Part shown: positions 1 to 35,788 of the stretch, piece by piece
Position numbering within the stretch: the stretch's first letter is position 1
Layout: every line of letters starts with the position of its first letter
NCBI GenBank assembly: GCA_016873895.1
Contig: VGVV01000002.1
Coordinates: 100,188 to 164,187, forward strand
Length of the DNA: 64,000 nucleotides
Direction: 5' to 3'
Origin: Ignavibacteria bacterium
GTDB lineage: Bacteria; Bacteroidota; Ignavibacteria; Kapaibacteriales; Kapaibacteriaceae
Notes under the pieces: generated by a model
What the model was told of the DNA's origin: nothing
Database searches by the model: none
What the model saw: the letters and a program-made list of their open reading frames with translations, nothing else
Made by a program: the position numbers and the translations under genes

Positions 1-335
1 CCGCCGACGGCCTTTGCTGATTCCATGAGAGGCACAGCTAGTCGCGCGATGTCTTCATTGGAGATAAGCTCTGTGCCGATGCGAACACGTTCGTTAAAGC
101 TCCGTATATGAGGCGACGTGTAGAGTCCAACCTTGTACCCGGCCTCGACCAAGATCGAAGCGATCATGGCGCTTGTGGAGCCCTTCCCATTTGTCCCGGC
201 AAGGTGAATGATGGGGAATCGCTGCTGCGGGTTGTCGAGATCTTCACATAGATGTTCGATACGTCCCAGTCCAGGCTTGATGCCGGCATGAAACGTCATG
301 GCAAACAGTTCATCGAGAATGTGGTCGATATTCAT
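1..335 (-). CDS. folC: Folylpolyglutamate synthase/dihydrofolate synthase (Mur-ligase family), N-terminal part; gene continues beyond window start
   Basis: Minus-strand ORF starting at ATG (rc of 333-335): MNIDHILDELF...IIHLAGTNGKGST. The HLAGTNGKGST P-loop is the FolC/Mur ligase signature. The ORF runs off the left edge of the window. Confidence 0.7.
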   Translation of the reverse strand, partial: MNIDHILDELFAMTFHAGIKPGLGRIEHLCEDLDNPQQRFPIIHLAGTNGKGSTSAMIASILVEAGYKVGLYTSPHIRSFNERVRIGTELISNEDIARLAVPLMESAKAVG

Positions 336-348
336 GGTAGCAAGGTAT

Positions 349-380
349 AAAAGAAAAGGGGCGAGTAAAAACTCGCCCCC
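349..380 (-). terminator. Rho-independent terminator downstream of rpsA (minus strand)
   Basis: On the minus strand: GGGGCGAGT-TTTT-ACTCGCCCC followed by TTTTCTTTT. It lies between the rpsA stop (475) and the folC start (335). Confidence 0.65.
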
Positions 381-440
381 TTGCAGAATCTCGTTTGTGG
401 GATCACAGCACCGGACAATCACATGGGGTCGCCCCTACTG

Positions 441-478
441 TGCTCGCTGTTCGCTGCTCGCTGTTCGCTGCTCGCTAC
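441..478 (-). repeat. Heptanucleotide microsatellite (RCAGCGA)n copy A, about 5 units, starting at the first base after the rpsA TAG stop
   Basis: Plus strand reads tgctcgctgttcgctgctcgctgttcgctgctcgctac. The minus-strand sense reads TAG-CGAGCAGCGAACAGCGAGCAGCGAACAGCGAGCA, which has no T on the sense strand. Confidence 0.85.
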
Positions 479-2247
479 TCTCCAACCGGTGTGCTGTCTT
501 CGAGATCCTCGATCGTAGTTACCGTAGATGCCGAACCATCGGCATTGTACTTGTCTGCGTTCGGGACTGGATGGTTGGTGTTGTACGTTGCAATCTCTTC
601 AGCTGAGCGCCCACGGAGGAATTCTACTGCTGAGAGAACGATCTTCTTTTGTTCCTTGTCGAATTCAACAACCTTGAGTGGAAGATTGTCTCCTATGTTG
701 AAGAAATCAGAGATCGTGCGAACAGGTGCAAACGAAAGCTGAGAGACAGGAACGAATCCATCAACGCCTTGTGGCATTTCAACGATAACGCCCTTGTCGA
801 TCAGACGAACGATCTTACCTTCGGTCTCGCTACCAACAGCAAACGCATTCTCGAAGATATCCCATGGGTTTTCTGTGATTTGCTTGTGTCCGAGAGAGAT
901 GCGACGATGCTCATTATCGATAGCAAGCACAACAACTTGAATTTCATCACCCTTCTTCACAAACTCACCAGGGTGACGGATCTTCTTAGTCCACGACAAG
1001 TCTGAGATGTGAACGAGTCCATCAACTCCAGGCTCAAGTTCTATGAACACACCGAAGTTTGTGAGGTTGCGAACGATACCCTTGTGGACAGAATCCATCG
1101 GATACTTCGCCATCAAATCGTTCCATGGATCTGGCTCGAGTTGCTTCATACCGAGAGCAAGCTTGCGCTCATTCTTATCGATATTAAGAACAACAGCTTC
1201 AACTACCTGACCAAGAGATACTACCTGAGATGGGTGCTTAACATGCTGAGTCCAAGACATCTCGCTGATGTGGATGAGACCTTCTACACCCTTCTCGATT
1301 TCAATGAATGCACCATAGTCTGTGAGCGAAACAACCTTACCACGAACCCTAGCGTTTGGCTCGTAGCGCTCGCCAATTTGATCCCATGGGTGAGGTGTGA
1401 GCTGCTTCATGCCAAGCGAAATGCGCTTACGGTTCTCATCAAAGTCGAGAACAACAACCTTGACTTGCTGGTCGAGGGAAACAATTTCGCTCGGATGTGT
1501 AACGCGTCCCCACGACAAATCAGTGATGTGTACCAGACCGTCAACGCCACCGAGGTCTACAAACACACCGAAGTCTGAAATAGCCTTGACGGTGCCTTCG
1601 ACTACAAGCCCCTTCTCGAGAAGATCCAGGATCTTGCCACGCTGCTCTGCAAGTTGCTCTTCGAGAAGCACCTTATGAGAGACAACAACATTTTCACTTG
1701 GGTGGTTAACCTTGACCACGCGCACATCGATGGTTCTGCTTACCCATGAATCGAAATCACGCACAGGGCGCACGTCGATTTGGGAGCCAGGGAGGAACGC
1801 TTCGATACCAAGAAGATCTACAACCATACCGCCCTTGATTCGACGAAGGATGCGAACCTGTGTTACCGTTTGTGTTTCTGCAAGCTTGAGAATCTCTTCC
1901 CATGTCTTCATGAAGTCTGCACGGCGACGGCTGAGCATCAGACGGCCATCGCCATCTTCGATCTTCTCAACAAATACGTCTACAACTTCACCTGGGGCAA
2001 GCAGCTCTGCACCAACGAATTCTGCGCGAGGCACAACGCCAAGCGACTTGAATCCGATGTCTACAAGAATCTCGTCCTTTGTAACGGAAACGACCTTGCC
2101 GTGAACCATGTCATCGGCTTTGAGGGTCGATACTTTTGCTTCGAACAACTGGCGGAAATCGTCGTCACCCATCGCAGAAGGAGCAAGCTCGCCCGAGATG
2201 AGATCGGCAATAGCCGAGTAGTTCTTTGTTTCTACTGAATCTGACAT
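475..2247 (-). CDS. rpsA: 30S ribosomal protein S1
   Basis: Six tandem S1 domains (...GKVVSVTKDEILVDIG..., ...GTVKAISDFGVFVDLGG..., etc.). The likely start is MSDSVETKNY at 2247, which is internal to the listed 623-aa ORF. The stop is TAG at 475-477. Confidence 0.9.
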   Translation of the reverse strand: MSDSVETKNYSAIADLISGELAPSAMGDDDFRQLFEAKVSTLKADDMVHGKVVSVTKDEILVDIGFKSLGVVPRAEFVGAELLAPGEVVDVFVEKIEDGDGRLMLSRRRADFMKTWEEILKLAETQTVTQVRILRRIKGGMVVDLLGIEAFLPGSQIDVRPVRDFDSWVSRTIDVRVVKVNHPSENVVVSHKVLLEEQLAEQRGKILDLLEKGLVVEGTVKAISDFGVFVDLGGVDGLVHITDLSWGRVTHPSEIVSLDQQVKVVVLDFDENRKRISLGMKQLTPHPWDQIGERYEPNARVRGKVVSLTDYGAFIEIEKGVEGLIHISEMSWTQHVKHPSQVVSLGQVVEAVVLNIDKNERKLALGMKQLEPDPWNDLMAKYPMDSVHKGIVRNLTNFGVFIELEPGVDGLVHISDLSWTKKIRHPGEFVKKGDEIQVVVLAIDNEHRRISLGHKQITENPWDIFENAFAVGSETEGKIVRLIDKGVIVEMPQGVDGFVPVSQLSFAPVRTISDFFNIGDNLPLKVVEFDKEQKKIVLSAVEFLRGRSAEEIATYNTNHPVPNADKYNADGSASTVTTIEDLEDSTPVGE

Positions 2248-2427
2248 ACAAATACTAGTTCCACTGCGTACATGCGGCCCTCCATGTATGCTGTGGAGTT
2301 GTGTTATTGTGATACAACCCCAGGGCCCGGGAAAGACTACAAACATACGGAACTGAAGGCAATTTCATGGTGTTTAAGGGGCGAAAACATCAGGCTTATC
2401 TGGCACGAATATTGGTTGGTAGATTGT

Positions 2428-2676
2428 ATGGAATGGTTCGATGCATTCGAAGAGCTCATGACATCCATTGAGCGTTACGTGGATCAGCACGGTGAGCCCC
2501 CTCATGAAGTGGCAGTATCTCCAATGCTTTACGGTTGGCTATCGGACATCCGAAGAGAATCCGAGGCCCTAGCCGGTACGGTTCACTCAGATCCCGGAAT
2601 CATCCCAACCCCCTGGGGCAACGTCCCACTCGTAATCGACGAGGCCCTCTCGGCCCATGAAATCCTGCCGAGCTAA
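2428..2676 (+). CDS. Hypothetical small protein (about 82 aa). The start is uncertain; the listed ORF begins at 2272
   Basis: ORF MEWFDAFEELMTSIERYVDQHGEPPHEV... with no recognisable family. It is divergent from rpsA and its TAA stop directly abuts repeat copy B. Confidence 0.3.
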   Translation: MEWFDAFEELMTSIERYVDQHGEPPHEVAVSPMLYGWLSDIRRESEALAGTVHSDPGIIPTPWGNVPLVIDEALSAHEILPS

Positions 2677-2719
2677 GCAGCGAACAGCGAGCAGAGAGCA
2701 GCGAACAGCGAACAGCGAG
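2677..2719 (+). repeat. Heptanucleotide microsatellite (RCAGCGA)n copy B, 6 units, starting at the first base after the TAA stop of the 2428-2676 ORF
   Basis: GCAGCGA ACAGCGA GCAGAGA GCAGCGA ACAGCGA ACAGCGA. It is the reverse complement of copy A. It is followed by a pyrimidine-rich tract (ccgtaccccgtacctagtacctag) before tRNA-Arg. Confidence 0.85.
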
Positions 2720-2786
2720 TCTATCCTGTAACTCCCGTACCCCGTACCTAGTACCTAGTCCCCAAAATTGGTATTTTGCGCCTCAC

Positions 2787-2860
2787 GCGCCCATAGCTCA
2801 GTTGGATAGAGCAGCAGCCTTCTAAGCTGCGGGCCGCAGGTTCGAATCCTGCTGGGCGCG
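2787..2860 (+). tRNA. tRNA-Arg (anticodon TCT)
   Basis: The 74-nt sequence folds as a cloverleaf: acceptor GCGCCCA/TGGGCGC, D-arm GCTC-AGTTGGATA-GAGC, anticodon stem GCAGC/GCTGC with loop CTTCTAA (anticodon TCT), T-arm GCAGG-TTCGAATC-CTGC. CCA is not encoded. Confidence 0.85.
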
Positions 2861-2881
2861 CTCATAGCTTGAGTGCTGCAC

Positions 2882-4180
2882 ATGAAAGGGACATCAATGG
2901 GCTATATGAGTGGATTTGGCAATGAATTTGCCACCGAAGCTGTCAAGGGTGCTCTGCCTGAAGGGCGAAATTCGCCGCAGAAACCGGCGTTGGGACTCTA
3001 TGCAGAGCAGCTTTCAGGAACCGCATTCACCGCGCCGCGCACTGCAAATAAGCGCACGTGGATGTATCGTATTCGTCCGTCTGTGGTGCACAAGCCATAC
3101 GAGCGTATCGATAATGGGCTGATCCGTTCAACGCCGTTTGCCGAAGTGGAGACAACACCAAATCAGCTTCGTTGGAGCGCCATAGCAATCCCTACAAAGC
3201 CAACAACATTTGTTCAAGGCATCGTGACGTTGGCAGGCAATGGCGATCTAACCACGCATTCGGGCTGTGCCATACATGTGTATGCTGCCAATGCGTCGAT
3301 GACAGACTCGTTCTTCTACAACGCCGACGGGGAAATGCTTATCGTGCCACAGGAGGGCTCGCTCAAGATTCTTACCGAGCTCGGCATCATAGACGTAGAG
3401 ACCTACGAGATCTGTGTGATTCCGCGCGGGATCAAGTTTCGTGTAGAAGTCTCCGGGGGTGTTCGAGGATACATTCTCGAGAATTACGGTGCCTTGTTGA
3501 AGTTGCCAGACCTCGGGCCGATTGGAGCTAATGGACTGGCATATCCACGTGATTTTCTGACGCCCGAAGCATGGTTTGAGAATCGCACTGGTGAGTTCAA
3601 GGTTGTTGCAAAGTTTCAGGGCAACCTATGGCAAGGCACCTATGACCATTCGCCGCTTAACGTGGTGGCATGGCACGGCAATTATGCGCCATACAAGTAC
3701 GACTTGCGCAAGTATCAGTGCATCAACACAGTAACATTCGATCACCCAGATCCCTCGATCTATACGGTACTAACTGCGCCAACCGATACGCCGGGTACGG
3801 CGAACATCGACTTTGTATGTTTCCCGCCGCGTTGGATGGTTGCCGAGGATACATTCCGTCCACCATGGTTCCACCGCAACTTCATGAATGAGTTCATGGG
3901 GCTTATCGATGGCATGTATGACGCCAAGGAGGGCGGAGGATTTGTGCCGGGTGGCTCGTCTCTGCATAACTGTATGAGCGGTCATGGTCCTGATGCCGAT
4001 ACCTACAAGAAAATGTCAGAAGTAGAATTGAAGCCTACGAAGATCGATGGAACTATGGCGTTTATGTTTGAAACGCGCTTTGTGTGCCGTCCGACTGCAT
4101 TTGCAATGCAATGTGCAGAGCTTCAAAACGACTATTGGGAATGTTGGCAAGGCCTAGTGCCTGAATTCACGCAGAAGTAA
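2882..4180 (+). CDS. hmgA: Homogentisate 1,2-dioxygenase
   Basis: The 435-aa ORF contains the [12 protein letters not shown]-terminal motif and HGD-family conservation throughout. The tRNA ends at 2860, so the true start must be one of the in-frame ATGs at 2882, 2897 or 2906, not 2873. Confidence 0.85.
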
Positions 4181-5918: not shown

Positions 5919-7093
5919 TGACCGATCTTCAGAACGCCTCCGTTACCATCCTCGGCTCTACCGGTTCGATAGGTACCCAAGCACTCGATATTCTCGAGCG
6001 CTCTGGAAAGGGGCAGGCATTACGGTGGATTACATGCAACACGAAGTGGCAGCTGCTTGCTGAGCAGGTAGAAAAGTTCTCGCCAAATGGCGTAGCCATT
6101 CGCGAAGAGCAAGCCTGGCGCGAATTCAAGGACGCAATGCCACGGTATACTGGCAGAGTTCTTTGCGGTGATGATGGAATTTGCGAGGCTGCAGCCGATT
6201 CAGAAAATCGAGTTGTCCTGTCAGCCATGGTGGGTTTCAGCGGCGTGCTTCCAACTTTGGCAGCAATCAAAGCCGGACATACCATTGGCCTTGCGAACAA
6301 GGAATCGCTTGTTAGCGCTGGCTCGATATTGATGCCTGCCGTTGATACCTATGGTGCTAAACTTCTGGCCGTTGACTCAGAACACAGCGCGATTCTGCAG
6401 TGTGTTGTAGGCGAGCGCAGGGATGATCTCGAGAAGGTAATCATCACCGCCTCGGGTGGCCCCTTCCGCACCTATACACACGAACAACTGCAACATGTGA
6501 CTGCCGCACAGGCACTGAAACACCCCAATTGGGACATGGGTGCTAAGATCACGATTGATTCGGCTACGCTGATGAACAAGGGGTTTGAGGTTATCGAGGC
6601 TTTTTGGCTCTTCGGACTTCGTGCAGACCAGATTGACGTTGTGATTCATCCACAATCGATCATCCATTCGATGGTGCAGTTTGTTGACGGATCGGTTAAA
6701 GCGCAAATGGGCGTTCCTACGATGTTGGTTCCAATCCAGTATGCGCTTACGTACCCGCGGAGAACTCCGCTCGACATACCACGCATGGATCTTGCCTCGA
6801 TGGGGCAACTCACGTTTGAGTCGCCAGATACAGAGAGGTTCCCATGTCTTGCCCTCGCGTATGAAGTGATGCGCCAAGGGGGCACGTCAGGAGCTGCTGT
6901 GAACGCTGCAAACGAGATTGCTGTTGAAGCGTTTTTGCAGGGTCGTTTGCGTTTTCGTGATATCCCTGCAACGATTGAGCACGTGCTTCATCACATGGAA
7001 CACGTCACTCATCCGTCATTAGCCGACATCGTGAGCATTGATGCAGAATCACGAAGGATTGCTCACGACTTTGCACATCGACATCAACTCTAA
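5918..7093 (+). CDS. dxr: 1-deoxy-D-xylulose 5-phosphate reductoisomerase
   Basis: ILGSTGSIGTQALDI NADPH-binding motif and full-length DXR similarity. The start at MTDLQ overlaps the RNase G stop as TAATG. Confidence 0.9.
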   Translation: MTDLQNASVTILGSTGSIGTQALDILERSGKGQALRWITCNTKWQLLAEQVEKFSPNGVAIREEQAWREFKDAMPRYTGRVLCGDDGICEAAADSENRVVLSAMVGFSGVLPTLAAIKAGHTIGLANKESLVSAGSILMPAVDTYGAKLLAVDSEHSAILQCVVGERRDDLEKVIITASGGPFRTYTHEQLQHVTAAQALKHPNWDMGAKITIDSATLMNKGFEVIEAFWLFGLRADQIDVVIHPQSIIHSMVQFVDGSVKAQMGVPTMLVPIQYALTYPRRTPLDIPRMDLASMGQLTFESPDTERFPCLALAYEVMRQGGTSGAAVNAANEIAVEAFLQGRLRFRDIPATIEHVLHHMEHVTHPSLADIVSIDAESRRIAHDFAHRHQL

Positions 7094-15701: not shown

Positions 15702-17438
15702 GTGGTGATGAAGTTGCTCTGGAAACTGCGAATCTTGCTAGGCCCGGTACGTCCATTTCTTGGTCGAAAGATCATAGATGGGATCGTGATTGCTCTAGAT
15801 CGGCTGCGGCTAGGCCGAGGATCAACAATTGCAATACACGAGGGCTTGTCTACCAATGCCGGTGTCTTCCCTCTGCCCTCTGCTGATTGGTTTCAGCGTT
15901 ATTCTGCTGATGTAGTATCATTTGCGCGTCAGATGCGCCAAGGCAAAGTCAATGCCTATGGAATTACGAACTGGAAGGTAGGCGACGACGATCCCCTTGG
16001 TGTTGACGTGCGGTCTACCCATGAACTAAGCAGAATGCATCACTGGTGTGCCTATGCTCTGGCAGTGCATATCGAACCGGAGAGAGCTGATGTTTGGTGT
16101 TCTGCATTCGAACATGAGCTGCGGTTGTTCGCCTCAACCTACACCAAGAGAAGCGTTCATTGGCGTTTTCCAATGGGTACTGCCATTCGTGTGTTCTCCA
16201 TGCTGGTTGCCTGGGATTGGATCAGGCGCAGCGGTTACGAGAATGCAGACACGGATAGATTTGTAGCAGCATGTGCGGCAGAGCATGGCATGCAGGTATA
16301 TCTGCATCGAGAGTCCAAGGGTGGGCTCTCAACATCGCACTTCGTTGCCAATCTTCTTGGGCTTGCGGCTGTAGAGGCGTATGTGCAGGGTAATCGTTCG
16401 TTGGCAAAATTATCTCGATACACACAAAAAGTGCTCGAACGCGAGGCGCAGCGGCAGATTTTACCCGACGGTATGGTGCAGGAAGCAAGCACCGGATACC
16501 ATCGCCAGGTGATAGACTTGTTTGTCATGATCGCAGTCTTGCGTCGTGGCGCAGGTAAGAATCTCTCAGCTTCTTTCCATGATGCTTTATCAAGGGGGCT
16601 TGCAGCACTTGATACGTTAGAGTCTATCGGAATGCCCCTGATAGGCGACAATGACGATGGTATGGCGCTCAAGCTTACGGGGTATGCTCCGCGTACAGAT
16701 ACAACACGCTACTACGCTCGCTACCTTGGGCTGGAAGCTGGTGCCTTGCACAACTGGACTTCCTACCCTGATTTTGGATTGGATATTTGGAGGGGTAGTC
16801 TGGGAGTTACCTTACGCAATGGATCAGTAGGACAATTCGGCAAGGGTGGGCACGCTCATCATGATCAAAATTCGATAACGGTTCGCTGTGATGGGCATCC
16901 GATTATTATCGATCCCGGTACGTCATTGTACACGTTCTCAGCAGCGGTACGAAATACAGAGCGCAGCGTACAGTTCCATAGCACAATGTGGCCAGCTGAC
17001 CAGGATCAGGGATACATGTATCGTGAACAGGATGGTTTGTTCTGGTTACCAGCGTTTGATCTACGAAGCGGTGTTTCGATGCGCAGCGAAACGCGATGGT
17101 ATGGAGAAGTCCATCATCGAAGCTCACTCGTGCATGCACGAGACGTAACAATCCAACCGCATGGCAGCATCATCTCTTGCATCGATACACTCCGCAGGGG
17201 CAGAAAAAATCCCATCAATGGCGAGCTCGTATTTGTGCTTGCCCCAGATATTCAGGTGCGTATGGCACATGATCATGCGGCACTCTCTGTAGGTGATACT
17301 CAGGTAATGCTGGAGTGGCAGGGGGCTTCGGGTTCCAGCCGAAAGCTGGTAACTGCCCCACGGTTCGCTCAAACAAGAGAATCAACAGCAATCGTATTAA
17401 GCGGAAATACCATCTCATGGCGGCTTCGCAGGAGCTAA
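15702..17438 (+). CDS. Heparinase II/III-like family protein (polysaccharide lyase-like)
   Basis: C-terminal GKGGHAHHDQNSITV...IIIDPGTSLYT motif characteristic of the Hepar_II_III domain. 578 aa. Confidence 0.6.
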   Translation: MVMKLLWKLRILLGPVRPFLGRKIIDGIVIALDRLRLGRGSTIAIHEGLSTNAGVFPLPSADWFQRYSADVVSFARQMRQGKVNAYGITNWKVGDDDPLGVDVRSTHELSRMHHWCAYALAVHIEPERADVWCSAFEHELRLFASTYTKRSVHWRFPMGTAIRVFSMLVAWDWIRRSGYENADTDRFVAACAAEHGMQVYLHRESKGGLSTSHFVANLLGLAAVEAYVQGNRSLAKLSRYTQKVLEREAQRQILPDGMVQEASTGYHRQVIDLFVMIAVLRRGAGKNLSASFHDALSRGLAALDTLESIGMPLIGDNDDGMALKLTGYAPRTDTTRYYARYLGLEAGALHNWTSYPDFGLDIWRGSLGVTLRNGSVGQFGKGGHAHHDQNSITVRCDGHPIIIDPGTSLYTFSAAVRNTERSVQFHSTMWPADQDQGYMYREQDGLFWLPAFDLRSGVSMRSETRWYGEVHHRSSLVHARDVTIQPHGSIISCIDTLRRGRKNPINGELVFVLAPDIQVRMAHDHAALSVGDTQVMLEWQGASGSSRKLVTAPRFAQTRESTAIVLSGNTISWRLRRS

Positions 17439-34224: not shown

Positions 34225-34957
34225 GTGCGGTTTGCAATTGGCAAGCATATCGTGTCGGGGAAGGACGAGACTGTCCGGCTGTTCCAAAACCTGATCCTTG
34301 AGTACTTCTCGCATATACATCCCGCTACACCTGTGATTGTGTATCTGCCGATCATAAGCGTGGTTGGATGGCGATCAGCAGAGGTATTGGCACCTTCCTC
34401 GTTTATCATTGCGGCTTGTGCCGGTATTGTGCTCTGGACGCTAGCCGAGTATGTGATTCACAGGGTGGTCTTTCATGCTCAGCCCCGGTCACGCCTGGGT
34501 AGAAAGGTTCATTTTCTCGTCCATGGGATCCACCATGCCTACCCACGTGATTCTACGCGTCTTGTTATGCCCCCTCTGGTAAGCCTCCCGTTAGCGGCAG
34601 CCTTCTTTGTGCTATTCAAGCTGGCATTTGGAAATTTCTACCAACCTATGTGGATTGGTTTTATACTTTTTGTATTTGGCCTATGATGGCATTTATTATG
34701 TTGTCCATCATGTAAACCTAACATCGCCGCTCGGTCGGTACCTGAAGATGCACCATATGCATCATCACTTTGTGAGCCCCGACCGTGCATTTGGAGTAAG
34801 TAAGCCGTTCTGGGACCGTATTTTTGCCTCGCTACCCGAGCCCACCACTCGTGTGTCGGTTAGACGCCGTAAATTAAAGCAGTTCATACAAAGGCAAACG
34901 TCGAATGGCACTCAGCAAAACCGATATCCTAAACGCCGCTCAGGCAGTTACAAGTGA
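34225..34957 (+). pseudogene. Fatty acid hydroxylase/sterol desaturase superfamily membrane protein, disrupted by a frameshift near 34665-34683
   Basis: Two overlapping ORFs (34225-34686 and 34607-34957). The first carries the His box HGIHHAYP and the second HHVN...HHMHHHF. They switch frame at a TTTTT run (ttttatactttttgtatttggcctatga). Confidence 0.6.
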
Positions 34958-35411
34958 ACTCGAGTGTGTAGAACACCACGGTGATCTTACCCTTGTTGTA
35001 AAACTCGCTGACCTGATTGAGGTGCTCTCGGAGCTCAAAGAAAATCCTAACACACAGTTCAATCAGCTTGTTGACATGACTGTGATCGATTGGGCTAAGC
35101 CAGGCGAAAGATTTGATGTTGTGTACTTCCTTTACTCGATAGCGCATGCGACCCATGTGCGAGTAAAAGCACACGTCCGTGAAGACAGGCCGCATGTTCC
35201 CACATCGGTAGATGTTTGGGAATCAGCTAACTGGTATGAGCGCGAAGCATACGACATGTATGGAATCATCTTTGATGGGCACCCAGACCTGCGTCGCTTC
35301 TTTATGCCGGAAGATTTCATGGATACCGACGGAACCCCGCTATATCCACTGCGTAAGGATTTCCCTCTCATGGGAATTCCAGGATCTCTGCCGCTGCCAT
35401 TGAAAGACTAA
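34905..35411 (+). CDS. nuoC: NADH-quinone oxidoreductase subunit C-like (30-kDa subunit), not adjacent to other nuo genes
   Basis: DVWESANWYEREAYDMYGIIFDGHPDLRRFFMPEDF...YPLRKDFPL is the conserved NuoC core. 168 aa. Confidence 0.7.
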   Translation: MALSKTDILNAAQAVTSELECVEHHGDLTLVVKLADLIEVLSELKENPNTQFNQLVDMTVIDWAKPGERFDVVYFLYSIAHATHVRVKAHVREDRPHVPTSVDVWESANWYEREAYDMYGIIFDGHPDLRRFFMPEDFMDTDGTPLYPLRKDFPLMGIPGSLPLPLKD

Positions 35412-35437
35412 CGAGCAGCGAGCAGCGAACAGCGAGC
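35412..35437 (+). repeat. Heptanucleotide microsatellite (RCAGCGA)n copy C, about 3.5 units, starting at the first base after the nuoC TAA stop
   Basis: TAA-CGAGCAGCGAGCAGCGAACAGCGAGC, in the same orientation as copy B. Confidence 0.8.
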
Positions 35438-35446
35438 TGATGCTAT

Positions 35447-35788
35447 CTAGCTCTGCAGCCAAGCAATTGCATCGTTCACGGTGGGCTGGAATTCAAACAG
35501 ATATTCAATCTGTGAGATGCGGAACATCTGGCGTACAGTTTCCTGTGTACCCACGAGAATAACGAAGCCTTCGTTGTCTTTCATTTGCCGATTAGCCAGA
35601 AGCAGGGCAGACAGGCCTTGTGAATCGCAGAGCTGAACTGCGGATAAATCTACGACCAGTGCCTTGGCAGAGGGCTGGCACAATATGAGAATCTCACTCT
35701 TAACCTCGGGTGCGAGCAGTGAATCCAGTGCTGGTTCTTTGAGTGTAAAAACTACCAACTCGTCATCTTGTTCAACAGAAAATCGCAT
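35447..35788 (-). CDS. STAS-domain anti-sigma factor antagonist
   Basis: 113-aa SpoIIAA-like protein (LVVDLSAVQLCDSQGLSALLLA). Confidence 0.7.
   Translation of the reverse strand: MRFSVEQDDELVVFTLKEPALDSLLAPEVKSEILILCQPSAKALVVDLSAVQLCDSQGLSALLLANRQMKDNEGFVILVGTQETVRQMFRISQIEYLFEFQPTVNDAIAWLQS

Follow-up and report, generated by a model that had tools for sequence, protein, structure and literature searches.

Why should a short tandem repeat begin at the very first base 3' of the stop codons of three unrelated genes, each time on the sense strand? The question is raised by a stretch of 64,000 nucleotides (nt) from an Ignavibacteria bacterium (assembly GCA_016873895.1, contig VGVV01000002.1, positions 100,188 to 164,187; hereafter the window), in which arrays of the heptanucleotide RCAGCGA follow rpsA, a conserved open reading frame (ORF) of 82 aa and nuoC. 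An earlier interpretation, made from the letters alone (the sequence-only reading), had suggested either an element that targets stop codons for insertion or a cis element of the 3' untranslated region (3' UTR), such as a binding site for an RNA-binding protein or for Rho. The adjacency to stop codons is real and statistically solid, and it extends beyond the window: in related genomes, 12 of 19 independent arrays are no more than 8 nt away from a stop on the sense strand, where 1.8 would be expected (P = 4e-11). The tracts belong to the known class of heptanucleotide simple sequence repeats (SSRs) and short tandemly repeated repetitive (STRR) sequences, of which they form a lineage-specific family. 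As to their origin, we give about an even chance to the reading that they are slippage-driven repeat DNA in 3' UTRs, the spread of which is blocked by the stop codon and the mainly sense orientation of which is kept by selection.

The three tracts, of 3.7 to 6 units, were read directly in the sequence. They stand at the loci where they had been reported, immediately 3' of the stops, and in all of them the T-free strand is the sense strand of the upstream gene:

441-474, minus strand: tract 1, 4.9 units (CGAGCAG CGAACAG CGAGCAG CGAACAG CGAGCA), its first base directly 3' of the rpsA stop
475-477, minus strand: stop codon TAG of rpsA, which with G478 and 472-474 reads GTAGCGA, one mismatch from the unit
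478-2247, minus strand: rpsA, ribosomal protein S1 with S1 domains, 590 aa (623 aa from an alternative upstream start)
2428-2676, plus strand: conserved 82-aa ORF, function unassigned, stop TAA at 2674-2676
2677-2718, plus strand: tract 2, six units (GCAGCGA ACAGCGA GCAGAGA GCAGCGA ACAGCGA ACAGCGA)
34905-35411, plus strand: nuoC, 168 aa, PF00329, stop TAA at 35409-35411
35412-35437, plus strand: tract 3, 3.7 units (CGAGCAG CGAGCAG CGAACAG CGAGC), covering 26 nt of the 35-nt gap between two convergent stops

In each tract the units follow one another head to tail and without spacers, and all three loci in these 64 kb are intergenic, in a window with a coding density of 91%. Tandem Repeats Finder reports a period of 7 with 3.7-5.9 copies and 84-100% matches; in tract 1, CGAGCAG and CGAACAG alternate, giving a 14-nt period with a 100% match. 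The two-unit pattern RCAGCGARCAGCGA, with up to two mismatches allowed, has 14 matches in the window against 2.3 expected, a number reached by none of 100 shuffles. Identical tracts are present in independent JGI, ENA and Logan assemblies and are therefore not an assembly artefact. The sequence-only reading had extended the first tract to 441-478, of which 441-474 stands as the tract proper and 475-478 is the stop codon plus the last base of the final Glu codon. Its statement that the sense strand contains no T holds for all three tracts and fails only for the T of the rpsA TAG, which lies inside that longer range. The only non-intergenic period-7 repeat of the window is a (TCTGCCC)2.7 at 15865-15883, inside a long ORF (15702-17438).

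How far does this unit reach? When one genome per species was scanned for runs of three units, at least 119 loci in many phyla were returned. On viral contigs, triplets of RCAGCGA were found at 7 loci and those of four composition-matched control heptamers at 13, 7, 3 and 17, so that RCAGCGA as a universally favoured heptamer was rejected. Heptamer arrays of many sequences are simply common; the lineage-specific trait is the multiplication of the RCAGCGA unit at many gene ends within a small clade. This clade comprises the window, a metagenome-assembled genome (MAG) labelled 'Patescibacteria group', two or three Ignavibacteria MAGs, a Kapaibacterium MAG and a Bacteroidota MAG, and the source names attached to the closest NuoC homologues are Candidatus Kapabacteria or Kapaibacterium, Ignavibacteria or Bacteroidota. 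The 'Patescibacteria group bacterium' MAG (L008 = JBIICY010000003.1; also L007, L037, L048 and L054) encodes a C-terminal S1 fragment that shares 94% identity with the S1 of the window, and its rpsA 3' UTR is nearly identical to that of a relative whose S1 is 96% identical (L124); it is therefore a close Kapabacteria-like relative, mislabelled or mis-binned.

Within the clade, tract length ranges from 2.6 to 16.6 units. GTAGCGA and GTGCCGA are common variant units of the family, and the commonest variants, GTAGCGA and ACAGTGA, are C-to-T changes that create stops. Other heptamer arrays, of GTACCTA, TTGGTMA and ATTACGG, neighbour RCAGCGA tracts, and in Ignavibacteria MAGs (TTGGTCA/TTGGTAA)n adjoins RCAGCGA arrays at L019 2029-2059, L074 443-518 and L098 938-1007. 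The TTGGTMA unit presumably matches the cyanobacterial STRR2 consensus, in which case the same heptamer recurs in distant phyla. In Verrucomicrobia, two Limisphaerales chromosomes (L052 and L080) carry pure (ACAGCGA) arrays of 20 and 37 units, apparently at the same locus, with a TGA or TAG 5' and a gene start 28 nt 3'.

For the adjacency test, each orthologous site was counted once and compared with random placement and orientation in the same spacer, using the Poisson-binomial distribution. One strand of a tract has no T and the other no A, and the tract is therefore open in all six frames; since this makes ORF-based calls of 'inside a gene' unreliable, they were replaced by greedy longest-ORF maps, array masking and Pfam checks. 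The 12 stop-abutting arrays of the clade are in sense orientation, against at most one that abuts an antisense stop only (P = 0.002). The upstream genes confirmed by Pfam are unrelated to one another (PurH, SDR, an SBF-family transporter, GcvH, TM2, a GlmS-type SIS protein and DUF5670), and in a convergent pair in L008 each gene has its own sense-oriented tract, which results in an inverted pair. Among the matches listed from all phyla, the distance to the upstream sense stop is bimodal, with 14 of 38 at -2 to +9 nt and the next at 29 nt, and 6 of 30 abut a convergent stop on the other side. Contact with stop codons is widespread, but outside the clade the strand bias is not clear. Arrays of other units likewise begin at stops, namely AGGGACC (L054), GTTTTGG (L125) and TGTGCTAA (L127), and the adjacency is therefore a property of arrays rather than of the RCAGCGA sequence. 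A purine-rich sense strand as the rule for stop-abutting arrays was rejected, as GTTTTGG and TGTGCTAA break it.

Tracts 1 and 2 lie on opposite strands only 2.2 kb apart, and on this ground a replication-strand explanation of the orientation was discarded; the orientation bias would thus stem from the transcript or from transcription. One mechanism of the latter kind is an expansion in which ribosome-free, purine-rich nascent RNA forms stable R-loops with the pyrimidine-rich template, replication stalls and slippage follows, so that arrays grow only where the DNA is transcribed without being translated and the sense strand is purine-rich. GAA and CAG repeats set a precedent, the orientation-dependent and transcription-stimulated instability of purine-rich repeats being established. 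Such a process would account for both the sense orientation and the stop boundary with no function involved, it fits tracts that follow transcription on both strands within 2.2 kb, and several host genes (rpsA, nuoC, glmS, purH, gcvH) are likely to be highly expressed. However, the seeding of RCAGCGA at new loci is left unaccounted for, other stop-abutting arrays of the clade (GTTTTGG, TGTGCTAA, AATTACC) are not purine-rich on the sense strand, and the footprint of the ribosome would blur the boundary by ~12-15 nt. We consider this explanation distinctly unlikely.

Contact with the stop is not only close but also phased. Of 30 arrays that abut a stop, 22 place its T at the C of CAG, the C of CGA or the G of GAR, against an expected share of 3/7 (P = 7e-4; P = 0.002 without two stops that lie inside arrays), and in the in-register cases the stop codon is the sole departure from the repeat. 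At rpsA in the window, for instance, GAG-TAG-CGA stands against GAG-CAG-CGA of the unit. The other ~50 stops of the window have neither a single-copy RCAGCGA-like motif nor a common post-stop signal. The register data argue that the spreading takes place at the DNA level. At one locus the contact takes another form: in L007 (reverse complement, ~923-974) an ORF of ~313 aa enters the array for ~2.5 units and ends at the TAG of a GTAGCGA variant, so that the stop codon, together with a short C-terminal tail encoded by repeat units, comes from the array itself.

What lies beyond the tracts, and do they persist between relatives? In the window they are followed by these elements:

355-382, minus strand: intrinsic terminator of rpsA, a 12-bp stem followed by a T-run, ~60 nt 3' of tract 1
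2734-2759, plus strand: two further short arrays of 7-nt units, (CCCGTAC)2 and (GTACCTA)2.3, beyond tract 2 and ahead of the promoter region of the tRNA gene
2787-2861, plus strand: tRNA-Arg(TCT), passing the Rfam threshold, the next functional element 3' of tract 2
35447-35788, minus strand: convergent STAS-domain gene, whose stop (CTA on the plus strand, 35447-35449) lies 9 nt beyond tract 3

Orthologous loci had been proposed as the place to look for insertion polymorphism and copy-number variation, and both were found there. The small-ORF tract has, within one population, five units in a lake-metagenome variant (L121) and six in the window. In a species with 89% identical NuoC, three contigs encode an identical NuoC protein and carry tracts of 2.6, 4.6 and 5.6 units, the array there occupying the entire spacer between the convergent nuoC and STAS stops; the short nuoC tract of the window showed no length variation in two other assemblies. 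An S1-based metagenome scan recovered 80 orthologous rpsA loci (96-48% identity), 75 of which include the stop, and the rpsA tract is in none of these 75 readable loci: neither in that of the relative with 96% protein identity nor in the 74 others. The rpsA stop, TAG in the window, is TAA in all relatives of at least 84% identity except L129 and L130 (TGA). When the rpsA 3' UTR is aligned with that of the 96% relative, the terminator alone aligns and no insertion boundaries are visible. Despite the near-identical protein, this 3' UTR is wholly remodelled: in place of positions 383-474 of the window, two perfect hairpins (GGGTGTGCCgctGGCACACCC and GGTCACGAtatatCGTGACC) precede the shared terminator in the relative (L124, 2205-2290). 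Two further short arrays, related to the family, were seen at other rpsA loci, an antisense (TCGCTAC)2.3 3' of the terminator in L133 (1916-1931) and, 5' of the gene in L131 (122-153), (ATTCGCT)4.6, the complement of ATAGCGA. L085, a candidate tract-bearing rpsA orthologue, was dropped because its upstream gene is glmS-like.

The nuoC tract is found in the window and in the 89% relative and not in relatives of 80, 77 and 76% identity, whose spacers of 23, 9 and 26 nt are unrelated in sequence and contain no tract-like seed. In the window nuoC stands outside any nuo operon, flanked by a fatty-acid hydroxylase-like gene and the convergent STAS gene, a neighbourhood kept in relatives down to 76% identity (loci L204-L212). 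The convergent nuoC/STAS spacer can be as short as 9 nt and is without a terminator.

For the 82-aa ORF a Pfam search gave no match; homologues of 43-89% identity occur in 15 loci of other organisms and, in most of those with downstream sequence, stand just 5' of tRNA-Arg. The spacer between the two genes (2719-2786 in the window) is a hotspot of tandem arrays with 7- or 8-nt units that differ between relatives, its length varying from 18 nt to ~250 nt and its array content from one relative to the next:

Window: RCAGCGA and CCCGTAC/GTACCTA
L074: 16.6 RCAGCGA units and thirteen TTGGTMA units
L127: TGTGCTAA and GTAACYCY octamers
L126, L153, L180: no array
L125: GTTTTGG 3' of the ORF stop and CCCAAAA 5' of the tRNA gene, ~480 nt apart, rearranged

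In the array-less relatives a T-free GCCGCCAGAGAAAACGCAG, vaguely resembling the tract, stands 3' of the stop of the small ORF. A conserved GGTATTTTG-like box is located 10-12 nt 5' of tRNA-Arg in this spacer and resembles what we take to be the Bacteroidetes-type -7 promoter element (consensus TAnnTTTG). The protein C-termini of rpsA, the small ORF and nuoC are the same as those of the orthologues; the arrays therefore reach up to the ancestral stop and do not redefine it.

This turnover bears directly on the proposal of a mobile element, or the footprint of insertions, that targets stop codons. Its patchy distribution, differing even between sister genomes, the identical unit at many loci and a 5' border, for example TAA-(R)AGAGTGCCGA, that recurs across several MAGs would suit such an element, as would the nuoC case, in which whole spacers are replaced rather than grown from a local seed. 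Yet neither terminal repeats, target-site duplications or hairpins nor linked transposase or reverse-transcriptase genes were seen, copy number shifts in situ by 7-nt steps, and the stops stand at the ancestral C-terminal position. Moreover, an enzyme acting on DNA would be blind to the difference between a translated stop and any other TAA, TAG or TGA. Since a real stop is defined only by translation, insertion at the DNA level cannot target it, and the flush contact would therefore result from selection on a spreading repeat. Stop-targeted insertion, which the sequence-only reading had offered as one of its explanations, is thus very unlikely.

Do the tracts, then, act in the RNA? A terminator follows the tract both at rpsA and in L037. 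That of rpsA (382-355) is genuine and begins ~60 nt 3' of tract 1, which therefore lies inside the rpsA 3' UTR, between stop and terminator as had been described. Folding of the isolated tracts confirmed the absence of hairpins (z = +0.54, +0.58 and +0.74 relative to shuffles); they are less structured than shuffled sequence. An Rfam scan of positions 1-3000 of the window, where tRNA-Arg alone passes the threshold, found nothing that overlaps the tracts there, even at E-values up to 1. As already recognised from the sequence, this is a family of contiguous heptanucleotide microsatellites and neither CRISPR nor REP nor terminator: contiguous 7-mers take the place of the ~24-48-nt repeats and unique spacers of similar length that mark CRISPR arrays; instead of the palindrome or terminal inverted repeat with a stable hairpin that is typical of repetitive extragenic palindromic (REP) sequences, bacterial interspersed mosaic elements (BIMEs) and miniature inverted-repeat transposable elements, the folding is no better than that of shuffles; and with neither stem nor U the tracts are not themselves intrinsic terminators. 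Inverted arrangements occur elsewhere, a sense tract being followed by an inverted partial tract in L081 (reverse complement, ~6970-7090), L008 (3488-3626) and L060 (580-731). In L081 the inverted partial tract is succeeded by a T-rich run, and the two arrays could pair into a long terminator-like hairpin.

Unstructured and untranslated RNA directly 3' of a stop, together with a nuoC/STAS spacer that has no hairpin terminator, might suggest that the tract is a Rho utilisation (rut) site and ends transcription 3' of the gene. However, rut sites are C-rich, G-poor and dependent on YC dimers, and the tracts have no YC dinucleotide at all and fewer C (8-11 per tract) than G (10-15). They can also be as short as 18-26 nt, and the rpsA tract is followed by an intrinsic terminator. 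The Rho site suggested by the sequence-only reading is thus scarcely credible. Alternatively, the tract might be translated, with read-through or frameshifting, so that some of the protein molecules would carry an (AASSEQR)n tail whatever the frame. The sense RNA indeed contains neither start nor stop codons in any frame, every frame encodes the same hydrophilic heptapeptide (AASSEQR or TANSEQR), the base 3' of the stop is C or G and never U, and the ORF in L007 does run 2.5 units into its array before it ends at the TAG of the GTAGCGA unit. The opposite orientation would give a pyrimidine-rich RNA coding for SLLAARC. But read-through products would gain 12-24 residues ending in unrelated sequence, 7-nt indels alter the downstream frame, orthologues do without the tract and there is no recoding signal, all of which makes a translated tail highly improbable.

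A more serious competitor is a functional cis element of the 3' UTR, acting as a multivalent platform for an RNA-binding protein or as a tunable spacer in the interplay of ribosome, terminator and nuclease, with copy number as the expression knob. Sense specificity and anchoring at stops belong to the level of translation and RNA, many gene ends carry one and the same unit, each gene of the convergent pair in L008 has a sense tract of its own, and tracts are placed between stop and terminator. The nuoC and small-ORF tracts are also common to species with 88-89% identical proteins, and other heptamer arrays have been proposed to act in regulation (PMC4679880; bioRxiv 10.1101/2022.06.06.494920). 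On the other hand, the tract is missing from the 75 other rpsA loci, relatives have unrelated arrays or nothing at the same sites, and neither a conserved length nor a structure or Rfam family was found. An RNA function would not lead one to expect the register between stop and unit, which is a signature of the DNA level, and no candidate binding protein was identified. That the tract varies in length, is rapidly lost among close relatives and gives way to unrelated arrays speaks against conservation as a cis element, and we regard this explanation as unlikely.

The reading that we favour starts from the stretch that is transcribed without being translated, from a stop to whatever functional element comes next, be it a terminator, a promoter or a convergent stop. 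Tracts would occupy this stretch, lengthen or shorten there by 7-nt units through strand slippage, and come and go between closely related genomes. The flush, in-register contact would arise at the DNA level, either by unit-by-unit spread (slipped-strand homogenisation) or by microhomology-mediated joining to the stop, and further spread would be halted by purifying selection on the stop codon and the coding sequence. The sense bias may reflect a filter at the level of the transcript, as the sense RNA has no U, is unstructured, lacks start and stop codons, offers no YC to Rho and would yield a benign peptide upon read-through. Beyond a possible change of the distance between stop and terminator, the tracts would have no dedicated function.

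Several observations weigh against slippage and selection as the whole account. The RCAGCGA unit stands at no fewer than 15 different gene ends in a few related genomes, which independent local slippage cannot explain, and the array-less nuoC spacers have no seed, so that copying between loci or selection for the sequence would be needed. A purely neutral process at the DNA level does not predict the strong orientation bias, and the transcript filters proposed for it are ones that we infer. Nor does a filter that merely tolerates certain sites predict flush 5' contact when 9-130 nt are often left on the 3' side. Among the matches listed from all phyla, sense prevails less clearly over antisense in stop-abutting arrays (14 vs 6, P = 0.12) than in the clade. 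In addition, the nuoC and small-ORF tracts, each common to two species, indicate some persistence. Since the seeding at new gene ends and the tighter contact at the 5' than at the 3' side are left unexplained by slippage and selection, RNA-level function is retained as a rival of low probability. In its fullest form this would be a sense-strand, stop-anchored system in the 3' UTR, a protein platform or a tunable spacer for termination, read-through or mRNA decay, which spreads among gene ends of Kapabacteria and Ignavibacteria and is retuned by slippage; this version we hold to be improbable.

Is the positional rule new? The kind of repeat is not: STRRs and arrays of TAACTGA and GGGAATC were already on record (PMC4679880, PMC4692102), a precedent that the sequence-only reading did not mention. 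STRR heptanucleotides were reportedly described by Mazel and colleagues in 1990 from heterocystous cyanobacteria. Like the RCAGCGA family they consist of spacerless 7-nt units in many dispersed intergenic copies, with several unit families per spacer; unlike it, they have other units and belong to another phylum than these Kapabacteria- or Ignavibacteria-like genomes. To our knowledge, a flush, in-register association with stops on the sense strand has not been reported for STRRs. Calothrix PCC 7601, with three tandem heptanucleotides, belongs to the STRR description, and heptameric SSRs are in general excess in bacterial intergenic DNA (both cited in PMC4692102). The heptamers GGGAATC and GGGGAYT of Xanthomonas and Nostoc are over-represented intergenic SSRs, variable in length and sequence between close relatives, and a slippage origin has been proposed for them (Rehm et al., 2015, PMC4692102). 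These can fold into G-quadruplexes, whereas RCAGCGA has no G-runs and is less structured than its shuffles. Heptanucleotide families were also noted in Geobacter (PMC2700814).

A parallel in behaviour may be drawn with the TAACTGA direct repeats of Beggiatoaceae, Cyanobacteria and Bacteroidetes, with 2 to >40 copies (MacGregor, 2015, PMC4679880). They too are intergenic, strand-biased with respect to genes, subject to 7-nt indels between strains, missing from the orthologous spacers of close relatives and mixed with other heptamers, and an RNA-level role has been proposed for them though not shown (PMC4679880). Apart from the strand bias, such behaviour is also on record for the GGGAATC/GGGGAYT arrays (PMC4692102). 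In the BOGUAY genome they stand just 5' of start codons, in forward orientation and with stop codons in the unit (PMC4679880). RCAGCGA arrays, by contrast, stand just 3' of stop codons, and their unit has neither start nor stop codons. The REPs and BIMEs of enterobacteria are likewise short dispersed repeats in transcribed 3' flanks, often a few nt from the stop and patchy between strains. REPs are, however, imperfect palindromes, which fold into hairpins and owe their mobility to RAYT transposases; RCAGCGA tracts are direct repeats with no hairpin and no linked transposase seen. Slippage-driven variation of heptamer copy number within a population is shared with the SSRs of contingency loci, such as the 7-bp repeats upstream of hmw1A in Haemophilus influenzae (PMC8262952). 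But these switch expression from promoters or the 5' coding part of surface or restriction-modification genes, while RCAGCGA lies 3' of housekeeping genes, and all three tracts of the window follow the stops of housekeeping or conserved genes. A rule that combines stop-flush contact, sense strand and register was not found described for the published heptamer families.

For practice, it follows from the six-frame openness of the tracts that they inflate ORF predictions, and their copy number is variable enough for use as a strain marker. Heptanucleotide arrays are abundant in several phyla, and to what is known of them the RCAGCGA family adds a testable positional rule (flush 3' of the stop, sense and in register) that separates spreading at the DNA level from selection at the RNA level. 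If functional, the tracts would be a new class of tunable 3'-UTR element, and a true stop-anchored system acting at the RNA level would give heptamer repeats, unexplained since 1990, their first defined molecular function. If not, they would be a natural system in which to see how repeats, selfish or neutral, come to occupy what little room a compact genome leaves, with borders shaped by coding constraint.

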